Assembly (NCBI GenBank): GCA_937896365.1
Contig: CALBMH010000060.1
Span: 1,200-65,199 of the forward strand
Length of the DNA: 64,000 nt
DNA from: an uncultured Alphaproteobacteria bacterium
GTDB lineage: Bacteria; Pseudomonadota; Alphaproteobacteria; Paracaedibacterales; JAKBAR01
Reading direction: 5' to 3'
Numbering within the stretch: the first letter of the stretch is position 1; each line of letters starts with the position of its first letter. The notes below the pieces were generated by a model that searched no databases, was not told the DNA's origin, and worked only from the letters and a program-made list of their open reading frames with translations. Position numbers and translations under genes: made by a program. This document shows positions 29,525 to 57,088 of this stretch, in pieces.

Positions 29525-29537
29525 AAGGATTCACTCT

Positions 29538-30356: not shown

Positions 30357-30383
30357 CTAACCTCCTTGACGACTCTATTGCGT

Positions 30384-33435: not shown

Positions 33436-33450
33436 TATTCTATAATCAAC

Positions 33451-36408: not shown

Positions 36409-37055
36409 TGCTTAAGATCGGACTCTCCCAACGTCTTGATTTTTATGGGCCTTATCGTGAAATACATGAATCTCTCGATCAACGATGGAGTCAGCTTTTA
36501 TGCAAGGAAAGGTATATACCCATTCCCTTGAGCAGCATTGTGCTGCTCAAGGATTTAACAGGCGCAATCAATTTTGATGGGTTTCTCTTAACAGGAGGTC
36601 CCAGTTATGGAAGTCCCCATACAGAAACCCGTGATCGATTCGAGTACGATATTCTATCCCAAGCAGCTGAAAGAAATATTCCTGTTTTAGGCGTGTGTCG
36701 TGGATTTCAAATGATGAATCGTTTTCTGGGAGGAACTCTCCAAGAACGCCCTGAGCATGTGGGAAAAACTCACGAAATATCTGTGTTTGGTGATTTTTGT
36801 ATGACGGTCAATAGTTTTCATACACGATGTGTGGATTGCTTAGGAAAGGGTTTTGAAAGTTTTGCCATATGCAACCTTGATCAGTCGATTGAGGGCGCTT
36901 TTCATCAAACATTACCATGGATAGGTATTATGTGGCACATGGAACGCGACGATCCCTTTCAGGATTTCTCATCCATGCTCCTTTACCAATTATTTCATCA
37001 ACGTTCGACAAAAGGGTTGAGAGATGCCTGCCATCGTTTTTCAAAATGTCAGTAA
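36405..37055 (+). CDS. Peptidase C26 / class I glutamine amidotransferase-like hydrolase (PuuD-like)
   Basis: IPVLGVCRGFQMMNRFLGGTL (nucleophile Cys) and IGIMWHMER (His-Glu region). The ATG at 36405 overlaps the upstream TGA (caATGAtg). Confidence 0.78.
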   Translation: MMLKIGLSQRLDFYGPYREIHESLDQRWSQLLCKERYIPIPLSSIVLLKDLTGAINFDGFLLTGGPSYGSPHTETRDRFEYDILSQAAERNIPVLGVCRGFQMMNRFLGGTLQERPEHVGKTHEISVFGDFCMTVNSFHTRCVDCLGKGFESFAICNLDQSIEGAFHQTLPWIGIMWHMERDDPFQDFSSMLLYQLFHQRSTKGLRDACHRFSKCQ

Positions 37056-38298: not shown

Positions 38299-38308
38299 GG
38301 ATCACCTT

Positions 38309-39181
38309 ATGGAAGAGTGCCAAGATTGCCATCATGACCAACTGATTAGCATCGATACTTATAAGCGTACGTGGTTTTTATGTCCGTCTTGTGGGAATGC
38401 TCGGCCATGCCAAAAATCTTTTTATTCTTTGTCTTTTCTACCCAATAAAAAATTCAAAAAGGACAAACAAAATCCCGAAGATATGTATGATTATTTTGTT
38501 CAAGACGTACATATTCAGCACTCACAAAAGGATGCAAAGCGCTTTTTTGATTGTTATGTCCATAACCGTATCGATATAAAAAATAAAGATATTCTTGATA
38601 TTAGTGGGGGAAATGGTCATTTCATTCATTTTTTTCAGCAGCATGGTGCGCGTGTTTTCATGACGGAAATGAATCAAAAGGCTATTGATTACGCCCAAAA
38701 AAAACTGGATATTCCAAGCTTTTATTATGATTTTCAAAAACATCGTTTGTCTTCGGTGATTACGCAAAAATTTGATATTATTATGTTGCGTGCAGCGATT
38801 ATGTTTTGTCGGGATCTTGATGGTCTTGTTACTGAACTTAAAAATTGTTTAAACGAAAACGGAATGATTATTATTGAGCATTCAGTAGAGCCAACTCTTG
38901 GGGTTTTAACACGTGTCCAATGCGATGAATTTAGTTATGAGATTTTAAGACAACCTCATAATGTGATCAAACTTTTTGAAAGGCATGGATTTCAGCTCGA
39001 AAAGCATGTTCATGAAACGGATCCAACCCTTTATGTTTATGATCACGACCTTTTAAATGGCTGGCTTTTTCTTCATTATTTATATGAGCTCAAAGGCGTC
39101 TTACGATTACGCAAACATCTAAACCTTTTTGCATTTCGTGCCCGCGACCGCCGCCGAAGCGTTTTTTTCTTTGTAAAGTAG
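38309..39181 (+). CDS. SAM-dependent methyltransferase with N-terminal Cys4 ribbon
   Basis: CQDCHHD..CPSCGN, then motif I ILDISGGNGHF and later MIIIEH. Confidence 0.7.
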   Translation: MEECQDCHHDQLISIDTYKRTWFLCPSCGNARPCQKSFYSLSFLPNKKFKKDKQNPEDMYDYFVQDVHIQHSQKDAKRFFDCYVHNRIDIKNKDILDISGGNGHFIHFFQQHGARVFMTEMNQKAIDYAQKKLDIPSFYYDFQKHRLSSVITQKFDIIMLRAAIMFCRDLDGLVTELKNCLNENGMIIIEHSVEPTLGVLTRVQCDEFSYEILRQPHNVIKLFERHGFQLEKHVHETDPTLYVYDHDLLNGWLFLHYLYELKGVLRLRKHLNLFAFRARDRRRSVFFFVK

Positions 39182-39191
39182 CGTCTAGACA

Positions 39192-41042
39192 ATGTGTGGA
39201 TTCGTCAGCATCATTGCTCATCAGGTTGATGAACGCATTTTACGAGGCATGCGCGACATGTTGCGTCACCGTGGGCCAGATAGTGAAGGACTTTGGATTG
39301 GAACAACGCGTGAGGGATGGAAAATTGGTCTTTCCCATCGACGGTTAAAGATTCTCGATCTTTCCGAAAACGGCGCGCAGCCTATGTGGGATGATGATCG
39401 ATTGTGCGCCATTGTTTTTAATGGGGAAATTTATAACTTCAAAGAGTTGCGCCGGTCTCTCCAGGAAAAGGGATATACTTTTCGATCACACAGTGACACG
39501 GAAGTTCTTTTAAAGGCTTATATCGCCTATGGTCTTGATTTTATCCATCACCTCAATGGGATGTTTGCCTGTACTATTTGGGATGAAAGGAAACAAGAAT
39601 TAATCGTTATCAGAGATCGCTTTGGTGAAAAACCCCTTTATTATGGGTACCTTCCAAAAGGAGGAGTGATTTTTGCATCGGAAATAAAGGCGATCGTTGC
39701 GCATCCTCAATGGAATGTCAGGATTCATGAAGCGATGCTTGATGCTTTCTTAAAAGGAGCCATGCCTTATGAATCCGATGAAACGTATCTTCGAAATATT
39801 TTTAAGGTTCCACCCTCCCACCTAATGATTTTTAATGGCAAAGGGGAACTCACTTTTAAAAAACGTTATTGGGAGCCACCTGTTTATGCGGAAAAAACCG
39901 TATGGTCCCAAGAGGACAGTGAGGAATTTTTATATCTATTACAAAAAAGTGTCAAAGACCGTTTCCAAGCAGATGTTCCCGTAGGAACATGCCTTTCGGG
40001 AGGATTAGATTCGTCCTTGATCACGTGTATTGCCTATCAAACACGCCATACAAAACCTTTTGCTGCAATTTCTGCACGCTTTCCAAAAGACCAGACATTA
40101 GATGAAGGTCCTTATATTGACGCCGTTTTGCATCACTGTAAAGGAACAGGGCTTTTTGTTACGCCATCTCCCTTAGAGCTTGTGGAGACGATGGATGATC
40201 TTCATTGGCACCAGGAAGAACCTTTTTTATCCGCATCCATGTACCTTGAATGGTGTGTTCAAAAAAAAGCAAAGGCATCTGGGATTACTGTCATGTTAGA
40301 TGGACAAGGTGCTGACGAAATTTTAGGGGGATATCAACATTATTTCCAATCATTTCAGCTAGATCTTTTGAGTGAAAAAAAATATGCATCTCTCTTAAAG
40401 GAAACATATTTATTTAACCGCCATCTTCACAAAGCATCTATCCTTTATTCAAATCCTTCCCGTCGATTTAATAAAAATATTGCATACTCCTTTTCATTCT
40501 TAGCAAAACAACATTGGAATAGGCTTCCATTTTTCGAAAATGGCGTCTTTAACAGCAAAGACATAGGGCTTTTTCGTTATCGTGTTCTCCATGGTCTTTT
40601 ATATGACATGCTTCCTTCCCAATTGCATTCTGCTGATCGTAATGGCATGGCCCATAGCATGGAAACACGTTTTCCATTTTTAGATTACCCTCTTGTGGAT
40701 TTTTGTTTAAATCTTCCAAGAGATGCTTTAATTCGAAGGGGATGGCAAAAATACATTTTAAGACAGTCAACTAAACATATCTTACCGAAAAGCATTCAAT
40801 GGAGAGCAGATAAGGTTGGGTTTGCTGCCCCCTTAGATCTATGGTTAAGGGAGGATCTAAAAAAATGGGGACATGATCTTCTACAACAACCGGATGTCAA
40901 ACATATGGCAAGTGGTCATAATATATCGCTTGAGCATGTATGGAAAAAACATCAAAAGGGTGAAGACCATTCGTGGGAAATATGGAAATGGATCAGCGCT
41001 TCCTATTGGAAAAATATCAAATGGACAAAAGCGATAGACTAA
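39192..41042 (+). CDS. Asparagine synthase (glutamine-hydrolysing)-family amidotransferase, copy 1
   Basis: N-terminal MCGF nucleophile, HRGPD, FNGEIYNF, PP-loop LSGGLDSSLI. Confidence 0.88.
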   Translation: MCGFVSIIAHQVDERILRGMRDMLRHRGPDSEGLWIGTTREGWKIGLSHRRLKILDLSENGAQPMWDDDRLCAIVFNGEIYNFKELRRSLQEKGYTFRSHSDTEVLLKAYIAYGLDFIHHLNGMFACTIWDERKQELIVIRDRFGEKPLYYGYLPKGGVIFASEIKAIVAHPQWNVRIHEAMLDAFLKGAMPYESDETYLRNIFKVPPSHLMIFNGKGELTFKKRYWEPPVYAEKTVWSQEDSEEFLYLLQKSVKDRFQADVPVGTCLSGGLDSSLITCIAYQTRHTKPFAAISARFPKDQTLDEGPYIDAVLHHCKGTGLFVTPSPLELVETMDDLHWHQEEPFLSASMYLEWCVQKKAKASGITVMLDGQGADEILGGYQHYFQSFQLDLLSEKKYASLLKETYLFNRHLHKASILYSNPSRRFNKNIAYSFSFLAKQHWNRLPFFENGVFNSKDIGLFRYRVLHGLLYDMLPSQLHSADRNGMAHSMETRFPFLDYPLVDFCLNLPRDALIRRGWQKYILRQSTKHILPKSIQWRADKVGFAAPLDLWLREDLKKWGHDLLQQPDVKHMASGHNISLEHVWKKHQKGEDHSWEIWKWISASYWKNIKWTKAID

Positions 41043-41044
41043 AC

Positions 41045-42319
41045 ATGAACAAACCTTTAGGCTGTAAAAAAGTGTGTATTGTTTCTTTTACACCTGTTTT
41101 TGATGAGCCCCGTGTGTGTCGCCAAGCGAGGGCCTTATACGAGGCAGGTGCTGATGTCACAGTAATCGGCTATAAAGGAAGGGGTAAATGCCCAAGTTTT
41201 TGGAATTTTATTGAGCTTAATCTGCATCCGCAGATATCATCATCGAAGACACCTTCTCCACTATCAAAACAAAAAAACATTCTTTTGAAGATTATGAATG
41301 TCGGCATAGTGCGTATTTCTCAATATGCCAAGCGTTTTCAAAAGTTATCTCTTCTTTTACTCAGTCGCTTTTCAAAACATGCAGCTATCTCTTTTTTTTG
41401 GAGGAATCATGAATACCAAAATGTCAAAAAAAACATTCCCCCTGTAGCAGCTGATCTTTATATTGCCCATGATTATTTCACACTTCCCATTGCCCTTTAT
41501 CTTTCTTCCATCCATCCTGGCAAAGTAGCCTTTGATGCCCATGAACATGCGACTACGCAATATGCCCATTCTTTATGGTTTCGATGGATAGAAGCACCGT
41601 ATGTTCATTCCTTACAAGAGTATCTTTTTCCCCATGTACACTGCTTTACAACCGTTTGTGATGGCATTGCTGATCTTTTAAAAAAAGAGTATCACTTACC
41701 TCAAAAACCCTTTGTGATTCGTAGCACCCCTTTTTATGAAGCACATGATTTCAAAAAAACAGATCCAAAAAATATTACCCTTCTTTATCACGGTGGTATT
41801 TCTCCTATGCGTGGTCTTGAAGAAGTGATTGAAAGCGCTCCCTCATGGCATGATCACTTAACGATGATTATGCGTGGTCATGGGGATCCACACTATATAA
41901 ATAAATTAAAAGAAATTATTAAAAATTATTCTCTTTGTAACAAAATACGTATTGAATCTTCTGTTGCTGCGTCAAGACTTGTCTCTTATGCCCATCGTGA
42001 TGCCGATATTGGATACTTTGCTCAACCACAAATTAGCCCGCAAAAACGCTATACACTTCCAAATAAATTTTTTGAATACACAATGGCGGGGCTGTGTCTT
42101 GTGGTGAACAAGGGGTATGAGATGAAAAAGCTATGTGATCATTACCAAAATGGTGTGTTTGTGAATTCCCTGACAAAGGAAGATATTGCTCATTGTCTTA
42201 ATTCTCTCACCCCAGAGGTGATTGATCGTTGTAAAGAAAAATCCCTTCACGCTGCGAAGGAGCTTTGTTTTGATCGTGAAGGTGAAAAAATGATCCAAGA
42301 ATATGCTTCTCTTTTTTAG
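41045..42319 (+). CDS. Glycosyltransferase-like protein, paralogue C
   Basis: FDAHEH and YTLPNKFFEYTMAGLCLVVNK are shared with 22360 and 23531. The ATG at 41045 lies 2 nt after the asnB-like stop and is preferred to 40973. Confidence 0.65.
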   Translation: MNKPLGCKKVCIVSFTPVFDEPRVCRQARALYEAGADVTVIGYKGRGKCPSFWNFIELNLHPQISSSKTPSPLSKQKNILLKIMNVGIVRISQYAKRFQKLSLLLLSRFSKHAAISFFWRNHEYQNVKKNIPPVAADLYIAHDYFTLPIALYLSSIHPGKVAFDAHEHATTQYAHSLWFRWIEAPYVHSLQEYLFPHVHCFTTVCDGIADLLKKEYHLPQKPFVIRSTPFYEAHDFKKTDPKNITLLYHGGISPMRGLEEVIESAPSWHDHLTMIMRGHGDPHYINKLKEIIKNYSLCNKIRIESSVAASRLVSYAHRDADIGYFAQPQISPQKRYTLPNKFFEYTMAGLCLVVNKGYEMKKLCDHYQNGVFVNSLTKEDIAHCLNSLTPEVIDRCKEKSLHAAKELCFDREGEKMIQEYASLF

Positions 42320-42333
42320 ACAATCAAAGACTT

Positions 42334-44175
42334 ATGTGCGGTTTTTCTTTCCTCTATAGTTTTTCTGATCCGTTGCTGTTGTCTTCTTTGAAAAAGATGA
42401 CGGATGTGATTCAACATAGAGGGCCGGATGGTGAAGGTTTCTATATAATTAACGATCAGGATATTTCTGAAACAGATTCATTTCATGTGGGTTTTGGTCA
42501 TCGACGCCTTAAAATCATTGACTTAAGTGAAAAGGCGCACCAACCCATGCACAGTGACTGTGGGCGTTATGTGATTGTTTTTAATGGGGAAATTTATAAT
42601 TTTAAAGAGCTACGTCAAGAGCTTGAACACAAAGGATATACCTTTCGATCATACAGTGATACAGAAGTGTTGTTAAAATCATTTGAAGCGTATAAAATAG
42701 ACTGCCTTGAAAAACTAAAGGGCATGTTCTCTTTTGTGATTTATGACATAGAAAAAAAAGAATGTTTTTTTGCACGGGATCGCTTTGGTATCAAGCCTTT
42801 TTACTATTGGTTTTCGCCCCTTGGGTTTTTTGCTGTTGCGTCTGAAATCAAACAATTGATACATCTTCCGGGTTGGAAGGCAAAGGCGAATCACGATCGT
42901 ATCAATGATTTTCTTGTCAAAGGTCTTCAAGACCATACCCATGAAACTCTGTTTGAAGGCGTTTATCAAATACCACCGGGGCACTTTTTTGAAGGAAAAC
43001 TTTTCCCCCACACACACCTTTTTACAAAACGTTATTATGAGCCCTTAGCCAAAATCCCCCAAGATTACCCTGAGCGGTCATTTTTTAGTCTTTTTCGACA
43101 ATCAATCAAAGAACACATGGAAAGCGATGTTCCCCTTGGAGCAGGGGTCTCCGGGGGTCTTGATTCGTCTTCAATTGTGTATATGATCCGTCATCTTTCT
43201 CCTCATCACTCTCTTTCTACATTTTCAACTGTATCCTCTGAAAAAGAATATGATGAGAGCATCTATATCAAAAAAGTACAACGTGACGTTGCCACATACG
43301 CTTACAATGTGGATCCATCGCTTGTGGAGAGCAAAGAACTCCTCGAAAAAATCGTTTGGTTCCATGATGAACCCTTAGGAACGCCAAGTATTCTTTCCGA
43401 ATGGTTTGTCTATGAAACCGTTCAAAAAACAAATGTAAAAGTGACCCTCGAAGGCCATGGCGCCGATGAAATACTGGGAGGATATCTTGACTTTATACCA
43501 TTTTATCTTCGTTATTTATTAAAGCAAAAGCATTTTTGTGTTTTTCTCAAAGAATGTTTCTTCATCGCCTATCGCTATCGTTGGCTTTATAAGCGATTAT
43601 TAAGGAAAATGCTCACACGTCTCAGTCTTATTTTTGGTTCAGCGTCAGCACCGTCATGGCCACAGGAATTTTTTTTAAAAAATGCTTGTGCGATGTCCCA
43701 GGCCCCGGCCAAAGGTTCATCCCCTCTTTCATGGCAGATGTATAATCTTTTTTTCCTGAGTCTTCCTAAACAACTTCATTGGGCCGATCGTGATGCCATG
43801 GCCCATAGTATCGAAGCACGTGTTCCTTTTTTAGATCATGCTTTGGTGGATTGTGTTTTGTCACAGAATCCTTTTGACGTTTTTAAGAATGGAAAAAGTA
43901 AAGCGCTGTTGCGTGAGCACATGAAGGATATCCTACCTGAAATGATTGTTAACCGGTCTTCTAAGATTGGATTTCCAAGTCTTTCTTCTTTTCAAGTATT
44001 CCATTCAGAACAATTGAAGACATTTTGTGAGGCCCATATGCCTTCTTTGTATTTTAGTGCGTCGGTTATCGAAGCAATACGGAACTGTAAGCAATATTCT
44101 TCCTCTGATCAGACATTTTTTAGGTTGTTAACACTTTTAATTTGGAAAGATATTTTTAAAGTCGATTTTTCATAA
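42334..44175 (+). CDS. Asparagine synthase-family amidotransferase, copy 2
   Basis: MCGF, HRGPD, FNGEIYNF, PP-loop VSGGLDSSSI. It is the last gene of the + strand locus. Confidence 0.88.
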   Translation: MCGFSFLYSFSDPLLLSSLKKMTDVIQHRGPDGEGFYIINDQDISETDSFHVGFGHRRLKIIDLSEKAHQPMHSDCGRYVIVFNGEIYNFKELRQELEHKGYTFRSYSDTEVLLKSFEAYKIDCLEKLKGMFSFVIYDIEKKECFFARDRFGIKPFYYWFSPLGFFAVASEIKQLIHLPGWKAKANHDRINDFLVKGLQDHTHETLFEGVYQIPPGHFFEGKLFPHTHLFTKRYYEPLAKIPQDYPERSFFSLFRQSIKEHMESDVPLGAGVSGGLDSSSIVYMIRHLSPHHSLSTFSTVSSEKEYDESIYIKKVQRDVATYAYNVDPSLVESKELLEKIVWFHDEPLGTPSILSEWFVYETVQKTNVKVTLEGHGADEILGGYLDFIPFYLRYLLKQKHFCVFLKECFFIAYRYRWLYKRLLRKMLTRLSLIFGSASAPSWPQEFFLKNACAMSQAPAKGSSPLSWQMYNLFFLSLPKQLHWADRDAMAHSIEARVPFLDHALVDCVLSQNPFDVFKNGKSKALLREHMKDILPEMIVNRSSKIGFPSLSSFQVFHSEQLKTFCEAHMPSLYFSASVIEAIRNCKQYSSSDQTFFRLLTLLIWKDIFKVDFS

Positions 44176-47647: not shown

Positions 47648-49585
47648 TTACTTTTGCTCTGGCTCCTTTTTACCTGTTTCCCTTTTTTTTGTAAACGCCC
47701 CCGTTGTGCTGTCCGTCGTCGTGGTAGAGGTGGAGGTGGTGGATGTTGTCGTTGAAGACTTTGATGCTTTCGCTGGGGGAGTAATCGAGTATATCTTCAC
47801 ACTTCCAGTGGTTTTCACAGGGGCTGTGGGTGCCGCCCTCTTCAGAGGAGACGACAGCTTCGTTGTTATCGTTGAAGGCTTAGAGGTTGTTGTTGTGGAT
47901 GTCACTGTGGTTGAAGGTTCAAGGTCAGATATTTTTTTCTTCTGGTCTTCGTCAAGTTTGACCTTGTCACCGAAAATCTCAACAAGCTGTTTGAGACCAA
48001 TATATCCACCTTCATTATAGTCTGCTTTTAGATTAGAAGCACCTTTCAGGACGAGGGATTGCAAGCTATTTTGCAGGTCTTTTATGGATGCCGGAAGCGT
48101 TTCTAAGGACTTACTGTCTGAAAGATCAAGAGTTCTTAAAGATGTGAGCTTATTAATTTCTTTTGGTAGCCGTTTAAACCCACTACGGTGTAGCTTAAGT
48201 TTTTCTAGGAGAGAGTTATTCAGACTCGAAGAATGCAAGAACATATACAGCTGGTATAGATCTTCTACAGCCCAACCCTCACTGCGAATCTCTACTGTAG
48301 GAAAGGCCCAGAAGTTTTCTGTGTTGATGATCTGGCGAACAATACCCCATAGCTTTTCTTCTTTTTTATCCCCGGTATGTCTGAGGTTCTGCTTATCCGT
48401 GGATAGTATCCATGCATTGGGAGTCATATCGACCTTAAGATAGTTTTGAGCAGCAGCCTCCTGAAATTTCTTAAGTTTTTCTCCCATGCTTTTGAGAAAT
48501 TCTTTCCTTGTTTCTTTATTAAACATGTAGATAGGATAGTCACGAAAGAACTGCGTCGCGACCCTCTTAAGGCTTGGGTACAGATCAGAAGGGTAATAGA
48601 AATGCTCTGTCTTCTCCATTGCTTTAAATATTCCAAGAGAATAATATGGCATTCCTTTAATATTACGTCCTTGGATTTCTTCCAAAGGGACATCGCTTAT
48701 GAAAGAATCTAGGCCCTCATTTCTCGATTTTTCGAAACCTTTTGCTAGACCCTCTTCGATTGTTTTCTTTTCTTTCTTTATATACTCAATATTCTTATTA
48801 ATCTGCTCTTTTATTTTATTTATCTCTTTTTCTAATGAATCTATACTTGCCTCATGAGTCTTTTTAATCTCTTCTTTTTTCGTACGAGCCCACTTTTCCG
48901 TGACTGCTTTCAATTCTTTAATGTGATCTGCTTGATCTTTCTCTAGAGTTTTCTTCTGCTCGTCTGTAAGGAGGAGGTGGGAAGGCGTGAGAAATTGGGG
49001 TCTTTCCTTTAACGTATCAATGGATTTTAGTTCTTCTTCCAAATTATCATCAATGGATTTTAGTTGTTTCTTATAATGCTGGTTCATAAGGTTTAACTGT
49101 TCTTCTGCATTCAAAGAAGATTCTTTCCACACCTTTTTTATCTTATGTTTATGATGCTCAAGAGAGGTAAGTCTGGAATCAAGATCTTCCAGGAAATTAT
49201 AGGAAGGGTCATCAAGAGCATCCAGAAGAACGAACAAATCATGGAGAACGCGAACGTGGGAATTATTCTCTAATGCATCTAGTGTAAACCCAAATGTATC
49301 CCCATCCTCCTCCTGAACGTCTGTTGCAATGTCATATACGGCGCGAAGCATGACAGTCAGCTCTTCTTCGGTGGGAGGACGGTCCAAGATTCTTTTTGGA
49401 TCCTCCCCTCCGGTTAGAAGATCAAAAATTTTTTGTGATCGTTCAAGAGAGTTATTCTGTGTTTTCTTTGTTGCTAAAATCTCTTCTAATGCAACACACC
49501 CACCACTCATCTGTTCTGCAACTGATTTTGATTTGGCACTACCAAGCAGTAACAAAAGCACTAAACAAGATATCTTTAATTTCAT
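47648..49585 (-). CDS. Secreted coiled-coil / leucine-rich-repeat protein with Thr/Ser-rich C-terminal tail
   Basis: 645 aa. Signal peptide MKLKISCLVLLLLLGSAKS; long K/E-rich helical region; LRR-like FKRLPKEINKLTSLRTLDLSDSKSLETLPASIKDLQNSLQSLVL; tail TTVTSTTTTSKPSTITT...STTTSTTSTSTTTTDSTT. Confidence 0.7.
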   Translation of the reverse strand: MKLKISCLVLLLLLGSAKSKSVAEQMSGGCVALEEILATKKTQNNSLERSQKIFDLLTGGEDPKRILDRPPTEEELTVMLRAVYDIATDVQEEDGDTFGFTLDALENNSHVRVLHDLFVLLDALDDPSYNFLEDLDSRLTSLEHHKHKIKKVWKESSLNAEEQLNLMNQHYKKQLKSIDDNLEEELKSIDTLKERPQFLTPSHLLLTDEQKKTLEKDQADHIKELKAVTEKWARTKKEEIKKTHEASIDSLEKEINKIKEQINKNIEYIKKEKKTIEEGLAKGFEKSRNEGLDSFISDVPLEEIQGRNIKGMPYYSLGIFKAMEKTEHFYYPSDLYPSLKRVATQFFRDYPIYMFNKETRKEFLKSMGEKLKKFQEAAAQNYLKVDMTPNAWILSTDKQNLRHTGDKKEEKLWGIVRQIINTENFWAFPTVEIRSEGWAVEDLYQLYMFLHSSSLNNSLLEKLKLHRSGFKRLPKEINKLTSLRTLDLSDSKSLETLPASIKDLQNSLQSLVLKGASNLKADYNEGGYIGLKQLVEIFGDKVKLDEDQKKKISDLEPSTTVTSTTTTSKPSTITTKLSSPLKRAAPTAPVKTTGSVKIYSITPPAKASKSSTTTSTTSTSTTTTDSTTGAFTKKRETGKKEPEQK

Positions 49586-49865: not shown

Positions 49866-51431
49866 ATGGATTATTTGAGCGCAAAGGCGTGGCCTTTTAT
49901 TGAGGCAAAAAAGATATTGGAGCGTTTGGGTAGTCATAAGCCTCAAAAAGGTTATGTTCTTTTTGAAACGGGGTACGGTCCATCTGGTTTGCCTCATATA
50001 GGTACATTCGGTGAGGTCTTACGCACAAGCATGGTGCGTCATGCATTTTCAAAACTCTCTGACATTCCCACGAAACTGTATTGCTTTTCCGATGATATGG
50101 ATGGTTTTCGAAAAGTGCCCGATAATGTACCGAACCAAGAAATGCTGAAGGAGTACCTTGGTAAACCCCTCACACACGTTCCCGATCCTTACGGCGAATG
50201 TGAAAGCTTTGGGCATTATAATAATGCAATGCTGCGTCGGTTTCTTGATTCTTTTGGTTTTGACTATGAGTTCCAAAGTTCGACGGAGTGGTACAAAAGT
50301 GGCCTTTTTGATCCGTATCTCAAGCTTGTTCTTTACTTCTACGACAATATTATGAAGGTGATGCTTCCAAGCCTTCGTGAAGAACGTCAGCAAACGTATA
50401 GTCCCTTCTTACCTATTTGTCCGCGTACCGGTGTTGTGCTACAGGTGCCCATTATTAAACGTGATGTTGAGGCATCTACGATTACCTATCCGGATCCTGG
50501 GACAGGTAAATATGTTGAGGTTCCTATTACAGGGGGGCATTGCAAAGTGCAATGGAAGGTGGACTGGGCTCTTCGTTGGCGCGCTTTTGATGTGGATTAT
50601 GAAATGAGTGGCAAAGACCTCGTCGATTCTGTCAGGTTGTCGAGTCAGATCTGTGATATCTTAGGTGGTAGAGCGCCCGCAACTCTTACGTATGAGCTTT
50701 TCCTTGATGAAAAGGGGCAAAAAATTTCTAAGTCCAAGGGTAACGGCCTCACCATTGACGAGTGGTTAACTTATGCACCCCAGGAAAGCTTATCCTATTA
50801 CATGTTTCAATCTCCTCACAAGGCCAAACGTTTGTACTTTGATGTTATTCCAAAATATGTGGATGAATACTTGGGGCAACGGGCTGCATATAATAGTCAA
50901 GATGAAACTGTGCGTGTCGATAGCCCTATTTATCATATTCACAGGGGTCACTGTCCGGATGTTGGCGTGCCTATCAGTTTTAATATCCTCCTTAACCTTG
51001 CATCCGTTGTGAATTGTGATGATCCGGCTATTTTATGGGGCTTTGTGAGTAAGTATGCCACGGGAGCATCGAAGGACAGCCATTCTTATTTGGATAAGCT
51101 TATTCATTATGCGGTGAAATACTATCATGATTTTGTCGCGCCCCATAAACATTATCGTGCGCCGAGTGATAAAGAGCGTCTCTCTCTTCTGGATCTTTTA
51201 ACGGAGCTTGAAAGAACGTCAGGAGACGCAGATGAGAAGGCGTTACAGACTATCGTGTTTGAGGTGGGCAAGCGTCATGATTATCCTGAGCTTCGCGCGT
51301 GGTTTAGTACACTCTATGAGGTGCTCCTTGGTCAAAAGGAAGGGCCGCGTTTTGGATCCTTTATTGCTATTTATGGTGTGGCTGAGACGGTGGCACTCAT
51401 ACGTAAGACGTTACAAGTACACACTATGTAA
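49866..51431 (+). CDS. lysK: Lysine--tRNA ligase, class I
   Basis: 521 aa. ETGYGPSGLPHIGTFGEVLRT (HIGH-type) and KISKSKGNG (KMSKS-type). Confidence 0.93.
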   Translation: MDYLSAKAWPFIEAKKILERLGSHKPQKGYVLFETGYGPSGLPHIGTFGEVLRTSMVRHAFSKLSDIPTKLYCFSDDMDGFRKVPDNVPNQEMLKEYLGKPLTHVPDPYGECESFGHYNNAMLRRFLDSFGFDYEFQSSTEWYKSGLFDPYLKLVLYFYDNIMKVMLPSLREERQQTYSPFLPICPRTGVVLQVPIIKRDVEASTITYPDPGTGKYVEVPITGGHCKVQWKVDWALRWRAFDVDYEMSGKDLVDSVRLSSQICDILGGRAPATLTYELFLDEKGQKISKSKGNGLTIDEWLTYAPQESLSYYMFQSPHKAKRLYFDVIPKYVDEYLGQRAAYNSQDETVRVDSPIYHIHRGHCPDVGVPISFNILLNLASVVNCDDPAILWGFVSKYATGASKDSHSYLDKLIHYAVKYYHDFVAPHKHYRAPSDKERLSLLDLLTELERTSGDADEKALQTIVFEVGKRHDYPELRAWFSTLYEVLLGQKEGPRFGSFIAIYGVAETVALIRKTLQVHTM

Positions 51432-51507: not shown

Positions 51508-52737
51508 ATGAAAAAATTAAGTTTACTTCTTGCTTCTTGCTTCTTGCTTCTTGCTTCTTCTGGCATGGTATATGCTTCCACAACGAAAACAGGCGATGCG
51601 CGATTCAATAGCTCTCTATTTAACGCTGAATCTGCAGATTTTTCTAGAATGGAGACAATTAAAACATGGGTTGCTGATAAGTATCATAATCAGACCTCGA
51701 TCATGAAGAAAGTTCAAGGTGACGTGGCGATGACTGTCCCTCAGAATCCTTTTTCGTCACATTTTGCTGAGCCCATTGTTAACAATAAGGGTGACACACG
51801 TTACTTTGGGAAAACGTTTCATACACTGAGTGCGATTGAGCTTCCTTTCCTTCAATATGTGAAGCAGATTAGCCAGACAAGATCGCCTGTGACACTTGAA
51901 ATTGCTGCTTCTATGGGGCTTGTTTCATGGAAAGTTCCTTTCTGCTTTCAAAATGGAGGAATACACTATGCCAATGAGCTGAGCAAGATAGTGTTGGATC
52001 AACGGTTCGAGCCAGTGGTTAATAGTCGTTTAGGTCATGCGAACCTCACAAAACATCTGACCTCTCTCCAGGGCGATTGTTTTACAGTACTTGATCATCT
52101 CAAAGGTAAAGTGGATGCACTCTACGTTCAGAATTTGCAGCACTTTTTCAATCCAATAACCAATGATAAATTTATGCACCTTGTTAATGATCTTCTCGCG
52201 CCTGGCGGCCGTGCGTATCTATCTGCCCACAGCTTTTTATTCCAAGACACAGAAGATGCATTGTACAAGCTTTATTGCAAGCAAAAAAAGGGGAGCGATA
52301 AATATCCTGGATTTGTCCAGTATGATGTTCAGTTTACAAATATTTTAGGGACTGAGCAGGGGCTTGAGCACACAATAACAAATCCTATACGACCAGCAGA
52401 TGATGCCCTTATTACAAAAGTAGACAAGCTAGATTCTGATAAATGCGGGGTTTTTAATGCCTTTGTTAATAACCAAGTTGTACAAGTAAAGACGCGTAAA
52501 CAAAACGTTGTTTCCAATCATTTTTCACCAACAATTTATCAAAGAACAATTGCTGATTTTCCTACACTCATCCACAAGGACTCATTCTTTATAACACAAG
52601 AAGGTGAGAGGAAAAAAGGATGGGATTGGAAAGGGAAGATTTCCCACGCAGCAGCGATTGTGGAGAAGGTTGCAGTGCCAGCGCCCGTTGCGGTAACTAC
52701 CACGACGACGACCGCTACGACCGTAAATACCCACTGA
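51508..52737 (+). CDS. Hypothetical secreted protein with weak methyltransferase-fold motifs and Thr-rich tail
   Basis: 409 aa. Signal peptide MKKLSLLLASCFLLLASSGMVYA. VTLEIAASMG, DALYVQNLQHFFNP and LLAPGGRAYLS loosely resemble class I MTase motifs I, IV and the PGG motif. The C-terminus is VAVTTTTTTATTVNTH. Confidence 0.55.
   Translation: MKKLSLLLASCFLLLASSGMVYASTTKTGDARFNSSLFNAESADFSRMETIKTWVADKYHNQTSIMKKVQGDVAMTVPQNPFSSHFAEPIVNNKGDTRYFGKTFHTLSAIELPFLQYVKQISQTRSPVTLEIAASMGLVSWKVPFCFQNGGIHYANELSKIVLDQRFEPVVNSRLGHANLTKHLTSLQGDCFTVLDHLKGKVDALYVQNLQHFFNPITNDKFMHLVNDLLAPGGRAYLSAHSFLFQDTEDALYKLYCKQKKGSDKYPGFVQYDVQFTNILGTEQGLEHTITNPIRPADDALITKVDKLDSDKCGVFNAFVNNQVVQVKTRKQNVVSNHFSPTIYQRTIADFPTLIHKDSFFITQEGERKKGWDWKGKISHAAAIVEKVAVPAPVAVTTTTTTATTVNTH
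51526..51560 (+). repeat. Heptanucleotide tandem repeat (CTTCTTG x4 plus CTTCTTC) inside the signal-peptide coding region
   Basis: Units at 51526, 51533, 51540 and 51547 are perfect; the unit at 51554 matches 6 of 7. The unit length is not a multiple of 3. Confidence 0.95.
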
Positions 52738-52748
52738 TGCTGCAAGTC

Positions 52749-52790
52749 GTCTTCTGGATGAAGCTTTCGATGCGGTCTTCTGGATGAAGC
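52749..52790. repeat. 16-bp direct repeat, period 26 bp, in a convergent intergenic region
   Basis: gtcttctggatgaagc occurs at 52749-52764 and again at 52775-52790. Confidence 0.9.
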
Positions 52791-52824
52791 ACTAACACGC
52801 TGCTTTGGGGAGGGGGGTTCCCAT

Positions 52825-53292
52825 TTATTTGATTGGGTGGGTACCATGATCTTTGGAATAGGTTTCCTCCCCGTCTTTGTTGTAATGGGACCAAGGACCT
52901 ATCTTACAGTGATGATGATAGGTCCCCTCAATGGCTATGGATCCGTCAGGATGGTAACTTTTAAATGCCCCATGCATGGTACCTTGGTGAAAAGTTTCCT
53001 GCTGAACAACGGTGCCGTTCTCATCGTAATGATAGCGCTCACCTTGTAGATGGCCTTCGTGATGATACATCGTGCTTTGAATATGACCGCTTGGGTGATA
53101 GGTTGAAGCAGGGCCGTGCAGCTTTCCTTTATGATAAGTTGCTTTGAAGATGAGGAGCCCATTACTATAGTATGTTCCTTCTCCTTCTAACTCGTTCTTC
53201 TCATTGAGCCATAAGCGGGCTGAGAGGCGCCCATGGTCATCATAGGTCAAATGTTCTCTAAGACTTCCTGTGTGTGCGCGTGAATGGCTCAT
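52825..53292 (-). CDS. His-rich MORN-variant (YwqK-like) repeat protein
   Basis: 155 aa with repeating G..(Y/F)H..G.(L/M)HG....YH..G units. There are 21 His by my count. The start lies 4 nt after the vgrG stop. Confidence 0.7.
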   Translation of the reverse strand: MSHSRAHTGSLREHLTYDDHGRLSARLWLNEKNELEGEGTYYSNGLLIFKATYHKGKLHGPASTYHPSGHIQSTMYHHEGHLQGERYHYDENGTVVQQETFHQGTMHGAFKSYHPDGSIAIEGTYHHHCKIGPWSHYNKDGEETYSKDHGTHPIK

Positions 53293-53296
53293 TAGC

Positions 53297-55435
53297 TTAA
53301 TTAATCATTGTCATAGAACCTTTGAGTGTGAGCATAGCACCTGCTGTAAATTCCCCTGCAGCGTCAGCCTTAACAGTGGTAAGTGTACCTTGGACGGTCA
53401 TCGCTGTATCCGCTTTCACAGTCGTTGTCGCTCCTTTTATCACCATGGCCGCATTGGCTTTAAACTCTCCTTGGGTTTGCGCTTCAATGGTAACACTTCT
53501 CCCCTTGAGCGTTAGATCACCTGTAGCTTGGATAGCAATAGCATCGGTTGCTTTTAGGTTAATCGATTGGGAAGTTAGGGTGATATTGTGGCCAATGGCT
53601 TCAATAAGAATGTTTCCATCATCCAGTTTAAGCGTAAAGTTGCCACTTTTTAAGTGTATGGCCTTGTCACCTTTGTCAACAGTAAGTGTGACATTGCCTT
53701 TTTGAAGGGTTGTTGACTGATCGCCTTCTTTGAGAGTGACCACACGATTCCCTTTATCCAACGTAATTAGATGATCACCTTTTACCATGTGGAGGGCATG
53801 GGTGGGAAGGTTATCGCCTTTAGCCTCATGGGTGAGGAGATAGTTTCCTTTTGTCATTGTCTTGGTCTCGTTACCCTCGTGAACAATGAGTGTGCGATCA
53901 CCTTTCATTACTTCTTGGTCGTAGTCTTTTTGTGCACGGATATACAGCTGTTCATTGTCTTTTTTGTCCTCGAAGCGAATTTCGTTGAAGGCATCTGTTG
54001 CATCCTTGGTGCTATTCGTTTTGAGTGTACTCTTTGTTTTGTCATCGGGAAGAGGGTAAGGGGGCTTGTTGTTGCCATTGTAGACGCATCCAACAACCAC
54101 AGGCCTGTCTGGATCTCCTTCAAAAAAGCTAACGATGACTTCCATGCCAATGCGAGGTATGAAGACAGATCCCCATTGTGATCCACTCCACAGCTGAGCT
54201 ACCCGAATCCAGCATGAGCTGTGATCATCGTTCGCACCGCGTTGATCCCAATAGAATTGTACTTTTATGCGACCAAACTCATCTGTATGAATCTCTTCTC
54301 CACTAGGCCCAACAACGATACCCATCTGATTGCTATGAATACGTGGTTTAGGTTTGAGATCAGGACGGTAGGGAACATTCACGGGGAAGCACGAAAAGCG
54401 ATTGGAGTAGACAACGTTACTGTTGGGGCGGAAATCGAGGAAATGCTCCACTTCATAAAGAACGTATTCAGCATTTGCATCCTCTCGAGGATGATTTTTA
54501 AGCGTAAATCTTATTCCTGGCATCATAGCGGGTACGGTACTTTTGCCGTAGAACATTTTCTTATTCCACTCAAGCTGCTCAATTTGAATCTGGTTAAGAC
54601 TTTCTCCTATCTTCATTTTGAAGAAGTTTCCAGGATAGCGATAAACCTCACCACCGTTGCCCTCCCCAGAGGTTTTAGGATAAAGTTTCGTATCAGGGGT
54701 TGTAAAATCGTAATCGGCGAGAGTTGATTTCTTGCTGACAACGCGCTGCTCAAGATGGAATTCTTGGATGCTATCGCCCCAGACACCGCTTACTTTTTTT
54801 GGAAAAAAAGGAACCGATGAGGGCGTTAAGGTACTCAACTTTGATACATCATCATGAACAACGAGTGTATCGCCACGAGGGCTGTGCAAAAAATAATAGA
54901 AAATCCCTTCTTCAGCCCACAACCGTGTTATAAAATCAAAGGCGCTTTCGCCATATTGGACACAGTACGACCGTATGAACATTCCCTTGGCAGATGCGCT
55001 GTAATCGACGTCACTCACGCCGTACTCTTCTAATAGAACCTTACACATATCGGTAGCGGATTTATTTTGGAACGCTCGATAATCTTGGTTAAAGCGCGTC
55101 ATTCCTAATTTGGGGAAAAGCTTTAGGATATAATGGGAAAATCCCGTTTCATCTTCTGTGATCCCTTGTCTTACTTCCCCAATGATGCCTGAAAAATAGC
55201 GTTCTTTGTCTTTATTATACTCAAATTTTACACTGGCAGGCTTTCCAACAAGGCTTGAAAGGTCAATATCCTTGGTTTTACTATGGGCTTCCACTGTCAC
55301 TTCAAAGAGCGTGCTAAGGCGCTCAGTGGCGTGGACACGATCCACGATTAATTTATTGGCGCCAAGCGGTGTTGTGAATTTGACGCTAAGTCTTTCCTCC
55401 TTCTCAGCGAGAGAAACAACCACTGGTATTAACAA
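53297..55435 (-). CDS. vgrG: Type VI secretion spike protein VgrG (no C-terminal toxin extension)
   Basis: 712 aa. N-terminal gp27-like region; gp5 OB-fold FYWDQRG..SCWIRVAQLWSGSQWGSVFIPRIGMEVIVSFFEGDPDRPVVVGCVYNG; C-terminal beta-helix repeats (LKSGNFTLKLDDGNILIEA..). It ends ..LKGSMTMIN. Confidence 0.92.
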   Translation of the reverse strand: MLIPVVVSLAEKEERLSVKFTTPLGANKLIVDRVHATERLSTLFEVTVEAHSKTKDIDLSSLVGKPASVKFEYNKDKERYFSGIIGEVRQGITEDETGFSHYILKLFPKLGMTRFNQDYRAFQNKSATDMCKVLLEEYGVSDVDYSASAKGMFIRSYCVQYGESAFDFITRLWAEEGIFYYFLHSPRGDTLVVHDDVSKLSTLTPSSVPFFPKKVSGVWGDSIQEFHLEQRVVSKKSTLADYDFTTPDTKLYPKTSGEGNGGEVYRYPGNFFKMKIGESLNQIQIEQLEWNKKMFYGKSTVPAMMPGIRFTLKNHPREDANAEYVLYEVEHFLDFRPNSNVVYSNRFSCFPVNVPYRPDLKPKPRIHSNQMGIVVGPSGEEIHTDEFGRIKVQFYWDQRGANDDHSSCWIRVAQLWSGSQWGSVFIPRIGMEVIVSFFEGDPDRPVVVGCVYNGNNKPPYPLPDDKTKSTLKTNSTKDATDAFNEIRFEDKKDNEQLYIRAQKDYDQEVMKGDRTLIVHEGNETKTMTKGNYLLTHEAKGDNLPTHALHMVKGDHLITLDKGNRVVTLKEGDQSTTLQKGNVTLTVDKGDKAIHLKSGNFTLKLDDGNILIEAIGHNITLTSQSINLKATDAIAIQATGDLTLKGRSVTIEAQTQGEFKANAAMVIKGATTTVKADTAMTVQGTLTTVKADAAGEFTAGAMLTLKGSMTMIN

Positions 55436-55525
55436 TCCTTTACATTTTACTCAATATTTACAGATTTATATCGAGAAAACAACCCTTGCAATTCGGGGTG
55501 TCCTGTTTTATATAGTGGGTATCGT

Positions 55526-55600
55526 TGGGGTATAGCCAAGCGGTAAGGCATCGGTTTTTGGTACCGACATTCCTAGGTTCGAATCCTAGTACCCCAGCCA
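55526..55600 (+). tRNA. tRNA-Gln (anticodon UUG)
   Basis: 75-nt cloverleaf folded by hand. Acceptor TGGGGTA/TACCCCA; D-arm GCC-AAGCGGTAA-GGC; anticodon stem TCGGT/ACCGA with loop TTTTGGT (TTG at 34-36); T-arm CTAGG-TTCGAAT-CCTAG; discriminator G; encoded CCA. It is close to E. coli tRNA-Gln. Confidence 0.95.
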
Positions 55601-55759: not shown

Positions 55760-56782
55760 ATGCGAAAAATACTCCTTTTTTCAACAATATTAAGTACGAT
55801 AACATGCCTCACAGCACAAGATATTCCTTTTGAGGCTTACAAAGCCAAAGTGAGGGAACAAAGGTCTGATAAAGCGAGCTTTCTCAAAAAGGATAAAATG
55901 AAGATAAAGAGGCGCTCTTCTCCGAGAAAAATGACGCTTTGGACGCAATATTATTATGCTCGTTTTAAGGATCGTATGGGTGTCACACCACTGCGTGGTC
56001 AATATAACTACGAGTTCCTTGGCGCACACTATAAAGTGAAACCGTGGCTGCACTTAGGTGGGTTTTTTACTCTTTCGCAGAGTTACAGCAAAAAGACTTC
56101 TCCTTATACAAGTACTTTTGGTGTGAGGCAGGAAATTGCTGCACGTGCACGGCTCTACGAAGTCGGGTTTAATCCTTATCTTGGGTGGCAAGCTACAAAG
56201 CATTTCTATATTGACGCAACCTTTGGTGTGTATTATGGCAATAACAAAGTGCAGAGAAACCTAGCTGATGCCAATGCAGGCGGGGAGAATCCAACACCCC
56301 CAGAAACAACGACCATAGCAACGCCAAAATCCCATCGTCTGTCAGGAGGCCTATTTGTCACTTATACGCGCCCTTTCAAAAAAGTCTATATTCAAGGGCA
56401 ATTTGGATATAACCATTCAACCATTAAACGTTATGGTTATCAAATAAGAGGTACCTTTACAGATCCTGCTGAGAGCGTGGGTAGGAAAACATTTGTTATC
56501 GGGACGCTAAGCGGCATAGCCCGCTTCGGGTATCTGAGTAGTATTCATATGAATCCTTATATCGAGGTAGGAGCGAATACCTATACGAATAAGGTTGAGT
56601 ATCTGCAAGAAACTCTTACAGAGTCACCAAGAAAACGCAATCCCTGGGGATATATGATTGGGGCAGGGATTCGATTTTCTTCCAAAAAGGGCCTCAGTTC
56701 TGGTATCTATGCGAGACAGTATCAAGGACATACGCGCCTAAAATCCAATATATTTGCTGTGGACTTGAATGTTTCATTATAA
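55760..56782 (+). CDS. Outer-membrane beta-barrel protein (autotransporter beta-domain-like, no passenger)
   Basis: 340 aa. Signal peptide MRKILLFSTILSTITCLTA, then alternating aromatic/Gly beta-strand pattern (YEVGFNPYLGW, FYIDATFGVYYG, LSGGLFVTY, YIQGQFGYNH, GYMIGAGIRF). Confidence 0.5.
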   Translation: MRKILLFSTILSTITCLTAQDIPFEAYKAKVREQRSDKASFLKKDKMKIKRRSSPRKMTLWTQYYYARFKDRMGVTPLRGQYNYEFLGAHYKVKPWLHLGGFFTLSQSYSKKTSPYTSTFGVRQEIAARARLYEVGFNPYLGWQATKHFYIDATFGVYYGNNKVQRNLADANAGGENPTPPETTTIATPKSHRLSGGLFVTYTRPFKKVYIQGQFGYNHSTIKRYGYQIRGTFTDPAESVGRKTFVIGTLSGIARFGYLSSIHMNPYIEVGANTYTNKVEYLQETLTESPRKRNPWGYMIGAGIRFSSKKGLSSGIYARQYQGHTRLKSNIFAVDLNVSL

Positions 56783-56797: not shown

Positions 56798-57088
56798 ATG
56801 TTTAAACTTATTTTATCTTTTTTATTGTCTTTGGGGACAAATCTCCAGGCCTTAACCCCTATGTTTCCGGTGGATGGAGGAGACGAGTCGATTGCTGAAC
56901 CTGGTTTTTCAGGTGAAGAGGGTCAAGAAAATGATCTCGACACGGTTGAAAGCCCCGGATTCGTCTATAGTGAGATGAATCCGGGTGCAACGGGGGATGT
57001 GAATGAGCCAATCATTCCACCCTCTCCGCCACAGCCACCTCTTCCGCCGCTCCCTCCCGTGCCGGATCCGGATCTTGAGCCTCTTTAG
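56798..57088 (+). CDS. Small acidic secreted protein with polyproline C-terminus
   Basis: 96 aa. Signal-like MFKLILSFLLSLGTNLQA, D/E-rich middle, C-terminal IIPPSPPQPPLPPLPPVPDPDLEPL. It starts 15 nt after the barrel gene stop. Confidence 0.5.
   Translation: MFKLILSFLLSLGTNLQALTPMFPVDGGDESIAEPGFSGEEGQENDLDTVESPGFVYSEMNPGATGDVNEPIIPPSPPQPPLPPLPPVPDPDLEPL

Follow-up and report, generated by a model that had tools for sequence, protein, structure and literature searches.

The vgrG gene and the adjoining gene for a 155-aa MORN_2 repeat protein analysed here form a new member of a known vgrG-MORN_2 module, an arrangement already present in the literature. We interpret the locus as the spike module of a canonical T6SS and, with moderate confidence, the MORN_2 protein as most likely a TseF-like passenger carried on VgrG. 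The identities of both genes, the retention of the pair at different genomic sites in relatives, and the recurrence of the order vgrG-MORN_2(-DUF4280) across phyla were all observed directly in this analysis. Throughout, the window refers to the whole 64-kb stretch of DNA that was analysed.

The vgrG (tssI) gene (53297..55423, minus strand) encodes a T6SS spike protein of 708 aa, as assigned from Pfam, NCBIfam and the N-termini of orthologues. Pfam matches comprised Phage_GPD (265.7 bits), Phage_base_V (55.2 bits) and Gp5_trimer_C (55.0 bits), and the NCBIfam models TIGR03361 (TssI/VgrG; 560.7 bits vs a cut-off of 186) and TIGR01646 (378 bits vs a cut-off of 122) were both exceeded, whereas NF033848 (VgrG-related family) remained below threshold at 55.7 bits vs a cut-off of 275. 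The product is a canonical T6SS VgrG in which a gp27-like region and a gp5 OB-fold are followed by a beta-helix at the C-terminus, and it terminates in the beta-helix sequence ...LTLKGSMTMIN without an effector extension, as is typical of unextended VgrGs. Both the architecture and the lack of an extension had been recognised in a preliminary description of this DNA, and Pfam and TIGR03361 supported that assignment; the further idea that the gene might belong to a non-canonical contractile system was not supported, given the TIGR03361 score, far above threshold, and homologues that adjoin clpV in standard T6SS clusters. We also sought a C-terminal signature peculiar to MORN-linked VgrGs and observed that the ...LKGG.VKIN ending occurs in MORN-negative loci too.

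The gene had previously been placed at 53297..55435, that is, from an alternative upstream TTG start at 55435 that gives a 712-aa ORF, 90 bp from the neighbouring tRNA gene. An exact database look-up of this 712-aa ORF returned no record, and the protein was recorded only from the GTG start (P0001). Translation probably starts at the GTG at 55423, since the resulting 708-aa product matched database protein P0001 (708 aa) at 100%, orthologues share the N-terminus MVVSL..., and an AAGGA motif lies 12 nt upstream. Thus the gene itself stands as described, while its distance to the tRNA is more probably 102 bp.

The MORN_2 gene (52825..53292, minus strand) encodes a TseF/YwqK-type repeat protein, a designation based on Pfam MORN_2 (57.3 bits vs a cut-off of 29.6), an AlphaFold2 model and gene position. 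The model (pLDDT 91.4) has 12 strands arranged in six beta-hairpin repeats, and a PDB Foldseek search with it recovered SET7/9 MORN, TbMORN1 and OspA-type sheets, which are generic beta-hairpin repeat folds only. Because its N-terminus (MSHSRAHTGSLREH...) is hydrophilic, the protein is predicted to lack a Sec signal. Its sole unusual feature is histidine richness: 21 of 155 residues (13.5%) are His, and most of these recur at one position of the repeat, following its conserved Tyr. An exact database look-up of the 155-aa protein gave no match and a word-indexed homologue search gave 2. A profile search was rejected as a route to orthologues, as the best 150 of its 29,344 matches were all long multi-repeat MORN_2 proteins (724–1450 aa). 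Scanning metagenomes with the MORN alignment recovered 15 generic MORN_2 repeat proteins (≤35% identity), none of them near vgrG and none a member of the compact His-rich clade. The MORN_2 repeat family at large is widespread away from vgrG, which says nothing on the orthologous group. PADLOC defence models matched neither VgrG nor the MORN protein.

Only 4 nt separate the vgrG stop from the MORN ATG, with both genes on the minus strand and no ORF between them, which confirmed the co-oriented arrangement noted earlier; given this spacer, the MORN gene is probably linked to vgrG both translationally and transcriptionally. The intergenic region between vgrG and the divergent tRNA-Gln (55424..55525, minus strand) presumably holds the promoter of the pair, and a Shine-Dalgarno-like AAGGA lies within it at 55440..55436; a minus-strand promoter consensus scan of this region yielded no strong match. 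The tRNA-Gln(ttg) gene (55526..55600, plus strand) is the sole tRNA in the window, and the coordinates of class I lysK (49866..51431, identified by Pfam) agree with the prior placement of the pair between lysK and this tRNA. Directly after the MORN stop lies a G+C-rich stem-loop (52806..52823), a possible terminator with a T-run on the plus strand only, which separates the MORN gene from a convergent gene whose 409-aa product carries a signal peptide and matched nothing in Pfam.

Almost every ORF of at least 120 aa in the 64-kb window was scanned with Pfam, which identified a polysaccharide operon of 23 kb along with housekeeping genes and no other T6SS genes. Profile searches of all window ORFs of at least 40 aa detected no ClpV, second VgrG, DUF4280 or second MORN protein, and no resemblance to canonical PAAR (PF05488) was seen when the sequences of the small intergenic ORFs were read by eye. 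As far as it was testable, the initial statement that the 64 kb holds no other T6SS gene, PAAR or toxin was thus borne out by the Pfam and local profile searches. The content of the window, including class I LysRS, paired ATP synthase b/b' genes and CtaA, fits Alphaproteobacteria.

The vgrG-MORN pair recurred in both of the nearest VgrG lineages whose downstream DNA could be read. In one (loci L002, L003, L004 and L007), VgrG was 55% and MORN 53% identical to the window proteins, and in the other (L005) these values were 58% and 40%; MORN orthologues lay directly downstream of orthologous vgrG in L002/L007 and in L005. The nearest named VgrGs were from 'Alphaproteobacteria bacterium' MAGs (61–62% identity), followed by Paracaedibacteraceae or Odyssella (~40%), and the taxonomic placement rests on these neighbours; no VgrG from the GTDB representatives scanned was 100% identical to that of the window. 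In the relatives, the pair occurs elsewhere in the genome, in unrelated neighbourhoods (pheS/acetyltransferase; sfsA/putA) without a tRNA. Conservation of the pair in three lineages with unrelated neighbourhoods suggests that selection acts on the pair as such. Both window ORFs are intact, and their divergence from the orthologues is typical of genes under selection.

A survey of 80 VgrG loci from GTDB species representatives (73 informative, with ±10 kb flanks) showed that vgrG is immediately followed by a MORN_2 ORF in 20/73, spread over many phyla, and gave no MORN matches elsewhere in the flanks. ClpV was directly upstream of vgrG in half of the MORN-positive loci (10/20), and a DUF4280 (PAAR-like) gene came next in 11/20, compared with 0/53 MORN-negative loci; the layout clpV-vgrG-MORN-DUF4280 was frequent among MORN-positive loci. 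This full order was found in Pseudomonas (L046, L061, L064 and L071; MORN 180–181 aa), and stand-alone vgrG-MORN pairs were found in Paracaedibacter symbiosus, Odyssella and two Paracaedibacteraceae MAGs (L009–L011, L025). In Xylophilus (L033), a stop-to-stop ORF of 919 codons that looked like a VgrG-MORN fusion was discarded as an artefact, as its frame differs from that of vgrG, the DNA is high in G+C and the ORF contains no Pfam VgrG domain. Neither in the window nor in the three orthologous lineages was a toxin gene or domain detected beside the pair, and the remaining MORN-positive loci inspected had none either.

The pair had been framed as an anomaly, a view that is at odds both with these survey counts and with published descriptions of vgrG-MORN_2 (PMC5379069, PMC8356804, PMC8163844). 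In Paracaedibacteraceae, Bodocaedibacteraceae and Caedimonadaceae, T6SS core genes occupy at least 4 loci, one of which is [ywqK-vgrG] (PMC8163844); YwqK adjoins VgrG in all diplonemid endosymbionts studied (Holosporaceae; 10.1101/719211), and a T6SS is reported in almost all Holosporineae (PMC11909080). Since dispersed T6SS genes are the norm in Holosporales-type genomes (PMC8163844), the lone vgrG of the window is not anomalous, and more generally a vgrG without T6SS neighbours in a Holosporales-like alphaproteobacterium should not be taken for an orphan.

According to the passenger reading, vgrG would supply the trimeric spike, and the 155-aa MORN_2 protein, probably co-transcribed and produced as a cytoplasmic protein that lacks a signal peptide, would most likely bind this spike and be expelled with it on sheath contraction. 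Such a passenger, being non-toxic, could do without an immunity gene. Genes for the remaining T6SS parts (tssA-C, E-G, K-M, plus hcp if there is one) would lie at other places in the genome, the usual situation in Holosporales-type alphaproteobacteria. Counting against this explanation, the likeness to the Pseudomonas TseF-like proteins is weak and repeat-driven, and the window clade is without the adjacent DUF4280 and clpV of other phyla.

The position of the MORN_2 gene, fixed between vgrG and DUF4280, together with the restriction of DUF4280 to MORN-positive loci, would also suit a spike accessory or adaptor, i.e. a quasi-core factor that aids assembly or loading at the tip of VgrG, perhaps by bringing in the PAAR-like DUF4280 cap or a different effector encoded elsewhere, and that need not itself be secreted. 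Retention across many phyla and in highly reduced endosymbiont genomes (10.1101/719211) is more like an accessory than a variable effector, and the binding of VgrG3 by TseF fits equally well (PMC5379069). However, the appearance of TseF in the supernatant is H3-T6SS-dependent (PMC5379069), and neither the window clade nor the Paracaedibacteraceae have an adjacent DUF4280; we regard such a role as possible and somewhat unlikely. The known adaptor families DUF4123, DUF1795 and DUF2169 have folds unrelated to MORN_2, which also speaks against it. The earlier suggestion of a cargo or adaptor accordingly survives in both of its forms, with a TseF-like passenger as the most likely one and an accessory role as its rival, while the novelty attached to it does not, as the module is documented. 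An immunity function, with the MORN_2 protein acting as a YwqK-type antidote to a toxin encoded elsewhere or left as an orphan after toxin loss, appears very unlikely to us. It has in its favour the database annotation 'toxin-antitoxin system YwqK family antitoxin', the Pfam MORN_2 repeat, which it shares with B. subtilis YwqK, and the use of this label for the MORN/YwqK protein in endosymbiont papers (PMC8163844, 10.1101/719211). In those papers, however, the label reflects annotation transfer and not experiment, and the one VgrG-linked member studied by experiment is reported to be secreted (PMC5379069). There is no adjacent toxin for the protein to neutralise: no ORF intervenes, VgrG is unextended, the downstream 409-aa gene is convergent, and the same lack of a toxin gene or domain, with VgrGs that end in a plain beta-helix, extends to the three orthologous lineages and the other MORN-positive loci inspected. 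A decaying remnant would not be expected to keep one toxin-less arrangement across phyla, and the proposal of a toxin-deleted remnant with a retained immunity gene fails on the same observation, as the pair is toxin-less in three divergent lineages (VgrG 55–58%, MORN 40–53% identity) as well as across phyla.

The proximity of the tRNA gene, a slightly higher G+C content (0.43–0.47 vs 0.38–0.43 in the flanks) and the different genomic sites of the pair in relatives could be explained by horizontal acquisition of a vgrG islet at tRNA-Gln, perhaps non-functional without a T6SS or serving a non-T6SS contractile system; we judge this highly improbable. Islands that target tRNA genes integrate at the tRNA 3' end, whereas here it is the 5' side of tRNA-Gln that faces vgrG. 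There is no integrase or transposase among the ORFs, and a search for a tRNA-derived direct repeat found none. The intact state and divergence of both ORFs, noted above, also speak against this reading, as do the profile scores, which identify a T6SS VgrG and not a member of the VgrG-related family (NF033848). The tRNA-linked island of the preliminary description is hence not supported, since the pair is on the 5' side, integrase and repeat are lacking, G+C is only slightly raised, and the pairs of relatives have no tRNA beside them.

The presence of vgrG-MORN_2 in 20/73 loci and the confinement of DUF4280 to MORN-positive loci argue that the 'YwqK antitoxin/immunity' label applied by annotators and in endosymbiont papers is probably wrong for the vgrG-linked positional class. 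A broader proposal, which we put forward as a speculation and consider rather unlikely, is that VgrG-linked MORN_2 proteins are a conserved part that associates with the spike in a single large T6SS lineage, kept from free-living proteobacteria to tiny endosymbiont genomes, and are neither immunity proteins nor Pseudomonas-specific iron effectors; the compact His-rich variant of this alphaproteobacterial clade could then be a metal-binding or pH-sensing form delivered on the spike. As a discovery the pair matters little, given that such a layout has been published before.

Compared to known systems, the window protein resembles B. subtilis YwqK in its MORN_2 repeats and in being a small cytoplasmic protein. 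B. subtilis YwqK, however, is defined by its adjacent cognate toxin YwqJ (LXG) in a type VII-secretion context, whereas the window protein has no toxin and is partnered with a T6SS spike. Orphan vgrG islands such as those of P. aeruginosa likewise consist of a vgrG without T6SS genes nearby followed by a co-oriented partner gene; unlike them, the window has no toxin-immunity pair, no DUF4123/DUF1795/DUF2169 adaptor and no PAAR.

Within T6SS clusters, the closest experimental parallel is the end of the P. aeruginosa H3-T6SS, vgrG3(PA2373)-tseF(PA2374, 178 aa, MORN_2)-PA2375(DUF4280) (PMC5379069; PMC7376260; PMC5014421), in which PA2375 is the DUF4280 protein (PMC7376260); the gene order in the Pseudomonas loci that we surveyed is the same as this published layout. 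The presence of TseF in the supernatant depends on clpV3, hsiB3C3 and hcp3, VgrG3 is retained by GST-TseF, and tseF-vgrG synteny in diverse bacteria was already noted by Lin et al. 2017 (PMC5379069), while a 2025 review calls the effector role of TseF contentious (PMC12133291). As in VgrG3-TseF, the gene for a small cytoplasmic MORN_2-repeat protein that lacks a signal peptide comes directly after an unextended vgrG in the same orientation, and a toxin or immunity gene is missing. Unlike the H3 locus, the window has neither a clpV before the pair nor a DUF4280 gene after it; its MORN protein has 155 aa vs 178 aa in TseF and 13.5% His vs about 3%, and the PQS/OMV/FptA iron pathway of TseF is Pseudomonas-specific and unlikely to apply to it. 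The window protein aligned with the 181-aa protein of Pseudomonas locus L064 at 29% identity over 87 aa (E = 7e-14) in several shifted, repeat-driven registers, and the window-clade profile scored Pseudomonas MORN proteins at 92–99 bits, values from which, in a repeat family, homology beyond the shared repeat is not separable; a homologue search via the Pseudomonas protein returned no named TseF among its matches. Orthology to TseF, as gauged against Pseudomonas TseF-like proteins, would rest mainly on gene position.

T6SS-b of P. phymatum (subtype i4a) contains a vgrG-YwqK-PAAR-like segment (PMC8356804), and Rhodoferax locus L030 reproduces its whole published layout (PAAR-like, solute-binding protein, dicarboxylate symporter, racemase). 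Like the window, P. phymatum has vgrG followed by a YwqK/MORN_2 gene, but there the pair lies inside a complete T6SS cluster and is followed by DUF4280, and the window has neither. The [ywqK-vgrG] locus of Holosporales-type genomes differs from ours in its proteins, as the Paracaedibacteraceae-type VgrG is only ~40% identical to the window VgrG and its MORN partner has 216–230 aa vs 155 aa, and the organism of the window is assigned to none of the families concerned. The locus matches in setting: the host is alphaproteobacterial, the pair stands alone among unrelated genes, and the remaining T6SS genes are elsewhere, as would presumably be the case in the organism of the window.

The larger gene of the pair (53297..55435, minus strand) matched Phage_GPD (265.7 bits), Phage_base_V (55.2 bits) and Gp5_trimer_C (55.0 bits). 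Its product scored 560.7 bits on TIGR03361 (TssI/VgrG; cut-off 186) and just 55.7 bits on the 'VgrG-related' model NF033848 (cut-off 275), and is therefore a standard T6SS spike protein, ending in beta-helix sequence (...AGAMLTLKGSMTMIN) as most unextended VgrGs do. Translation likely starts at the GTG at 55423, which has AAGGA 12 nt upstream and is where the 100% identical database copy P0001 (708 aa) begins; the N-termini of all VgrG orthologues read MVVSL/MASP. A spacer of 4 nt separates the vgrG stop codon from the 155-aa MORN_2 gene (52825..53292, minus strand; 57.3 bits, cut-off 29.6). The preliminary description had the pair standing without any other T6SS gene, and this held in the window, where local searches of every ORF of at least 40 aa found no ClpV, second VgrG, DUF4280 (PAAR-like) or second MORN protein.

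Relatives were compared in two VgrG lineages, the closest for which the DNA downstream of vgrG could be read. VgrG was 55% identical to that of the window in the lineage of database protein P0008 (loci L002, L003, L004 and L007) and 58% identical in that of P0003 (L005), and a MORN homologue lay directly after it in both (53% and 40% identical, respectively). The nearest VgrGs (61–62% identity) came from MAGs labelled Alphaproteobacteria, and those of Paracaedibacteraceae and Odyssella were ~40% identical. As vgrG and the MORN gene were intact and had diverged to a comparable extent between lineages, the pattern is that of a selected two-gene unit and not of a decayed toxin islet, which argues against the earlier reading of a remnant that had lost its toxin.

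The neighbourhood of the pair was not conserved, its flanks being entirely different in the two lineages. In one, the pair sat between pheS with an acetyltransferase gene and a polysaccharide synthesis gene; in the other, its neighbours were sfsA and putA; and no tRNA gene lay beside it in either. In the window, vgrG and tRNA-Gln(ttg) (55526..55600, plus strand), the single tRNA of the window, are divergent, so that vgrG lies at the 5' end of the tRNA. Islands integrate at the 3' end of tRNA genes. Neither an integrase nor a repeat of the tRNA sequence was found, and the suggested tRNA-linked island was not borne out; G+C was 0.43–0.47 across the pair and 0.38–0.43 in the flanks. The different sites occupied in different lineages imply that the pair moved or that the genomes were rearranged, and nothing connects this with the tRNA-Gln of the window.

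Otherwise the window is taken up by housekeeping genes and a polysaccharide biosynthesis operon. Class I lysK lies at 49866..51431, and housekeeping genes include cheA, class II ribonucleotide reductase, thiolase, photolyase, uvrA, ATP synthase F0 genes, ctaA, M24 peptidase, trkH and comEC. This ~23-kb operon of roughly 23 co-oriented genes (21151..44175, plus strand), for the modification of polysaccharide or LPS, encodes several glycosyltransferases, two ABC transporter ATPases, hisH/hisF-like and NAD-synthase-like proteins, two asparagine synthase paralogues, methyltransferases and a 985-aa PEP-utilising-enzyme-like protein. Convergent with the MORN gene is a gene (51508..52737, plus strand) for a 409-aa protein with a clear signal peptide and a Thr-rich C-terminal tail (TTTTTTATT), which had no match in Pfam and NCBIfam searches and is possibly secreted or surface-exposed. 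The short intergenic region between these two genes holds a perfect 16-nt direct repeat (GTCTTCTGGATGAAGC; 52749..52764 and 52775..52790, 26 nt apart). About 3 kb from the pair, a 645-aa protein (47648..49585, minus strand) gave a weak, below-cut-off LRR_14 match (27.8 bits); in Holosporaceae endosymbionts, LRR proteins have been noted close to genes for T6SS effectors (George et al., 10.1101/719211). On the far side of tRNA-Gln, genes for a 340-aa protein comprising hardly more than an autotransporter beta-domain (55760..56782, plus strand; 29.3 bits) and a 96-aa proline-rich protein with a signal peptide (56798..57088, plus strand) were both also present on an independent ENA contig (L001).

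The wider distribution was surveyed in one genome per GTDB species, using an alignment of the closest VgrGs as query and keeping the best 80 loci, whose six-frame ORFs were searched with a profile of three MORN orthologues, a ClpV query and a DUF4280 query. In 73 loci the sequence extended at least 600 nt beyond vgrG, and 20 of these had a MORN_2 ORF directly downstream of it; no MORN match occurred elsewhere in the ±10 kb flanks. Hosts included Pseudomonas, Rhodoferax, Variovorax, Xylophilus, Polyangium and Nitrospina. Half of the MORN-positive loci (10/20) had ClpV directly upstream of vgrG, confirmed in five by Pfam AAA_2, ClpB_D2-small and Clp_N. Within 2.5 kb of vgrG, DUF4280 was encoded at 11 of the 20 loci with a MORN_2 gene (L018, L021, L023, L030, L033, L035, L046, L048, L061, L064 and L071) and at 0 of the 53 without one; this confinement suggests that vgrG-MORN_2-DUF4280 is a three-gene spike unit. 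Adjacent DUF4280 was missing in the window clade and Paracaedibacteraceae. In four further hosts (Paracaedibacter symbiosus, Odyssella and two MAGs of Paracaedibacteraceae), the pair stood alone amid unrelated genes, as in the window, with neighbours such as an OmpA-like protein, a metallo-beta-lactamase-fold protein and an RND efflux pump. In Candidatus Paracaedibacter symbiosus (L011), a patatin-like phospholipase gene (13905..15017), conceivably encoding a T6SS effector, lies ~1.2 kb downstream of the pair, beyond a convergent metallo-beta-lactamase-fold gene.

The AlphaFold2 model of the MORN protein was confident (mean pLDDT 91.4) and had twelve strands forming six hairpins. Its structural neighbours were single-layer beta-sheets, among them OspA, parts of Rhs shells and the MORN repeats of SET7/9 and of Trypanosoma MORN1; model and neighbours gave the fold alone and indicated no catalytic site. 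The sole standout feature of the pair is composition: histidine makes up 21 of the 155 residues (13.5%), compared to 9.9% and 8.8% in two orthologues (L002 8316..8744; L005 2360..2839) and 1.3–4.6% in twelve other VgrG-linked MORN proteins. Seven histidines are invariant across the three orthologues, and most come immediately behind the conserved aromatic residue (Tyr/Phe) in each repeat (TYH, MYHH, RYH, TFH, SYH, TYHHH), a recurrence that would line them up along the sheet and might conceivably relate to metal binding.

Release of P. aeruginosa TseF (PA2374) into the supernatant was sharply reduced in clpV3, hsiB3C3 and hcp3 mutants, GST-TseF retained VgrG3 and VgrG1b, and TseF homologues in diverse bacteria mostly co-localised with a vgrG (Lin et al. 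2017, PMC5379069). Given these experiments, the absence of a signal peptide from the MORN protein and the absence of a toxin gene or domain beside the MORN gene in any inspected locus, the best reading is of a passenger that would bind VgrG and leave the cell with the spike. A role as an immunity protein appears very improbable, as it stems from annotation transfer from B. subtilis YwqK and the adjacent toxin that defines such proteins was not found. A spike accessory or adaptor is somewhat less improbable, though still unlikely: the constant location of the MORN gene between vgrG and DUF4280, the confinement of DUF4280 to MORN-positive loci and the survival of the gene in very reduced genomes would all suit such a role at least as well as that of a passenger. 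The TseF effector story has itself been termed contentious in a recent review (PMC12133291).

Similarity between the window MORN protein and Pseudomonas TseF-like proteins was weak and repeat-driven, so that assignment to the TseF family depends on the type of repeat, the size of the protein and the place of its gene. Since the gene after tseF, PA2375, encodes a DUF4280 PAAR-like protein (PMC7376260, PMC5014421), the clpV-vgrG-MORN-DUF4280 order found here in four Pseudomonas species equals the P. aeruginosa H3 layout. In T6SS-b of Paraburkholderia phymatum, vgrG is likewise followed by a 'YwqK family antitoxin' gene and then by a PAAR-like gene (PMC8356804). The Rhodoferax saidenbachensis locus (L030 7103..16246) runs clpV-vgrG-MORN_2-DUF4280 and continues with genes for a solute-binding protein, a sodium:dicarboxylate symporter and an Asp/Glu racemase, matching the published P. 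phymatum order down to the transporter and racemase genes; the extended block from clpV to racemase is therefore conserved across Burkholderiales genera. T6SS occurs in almost all Holosporineae genomes (PMC11909080, a 2025 review), and in every diplonemid endosymbiont studied, vgrG has a YwqK-family gene as its neighbour (George et al., bioRxiv 10.1101/719211). In Bodocaedibacteraceae, Paracaedibacteraceae and Caedimonadaceae, the T6SS core genes are spread in a conserved arrangement over at least four loci, among them [ywqK-vgrG] (Midha et al., PMC8163844). The vgrG-MORN_2 pair of the window adds to a module that is already known.
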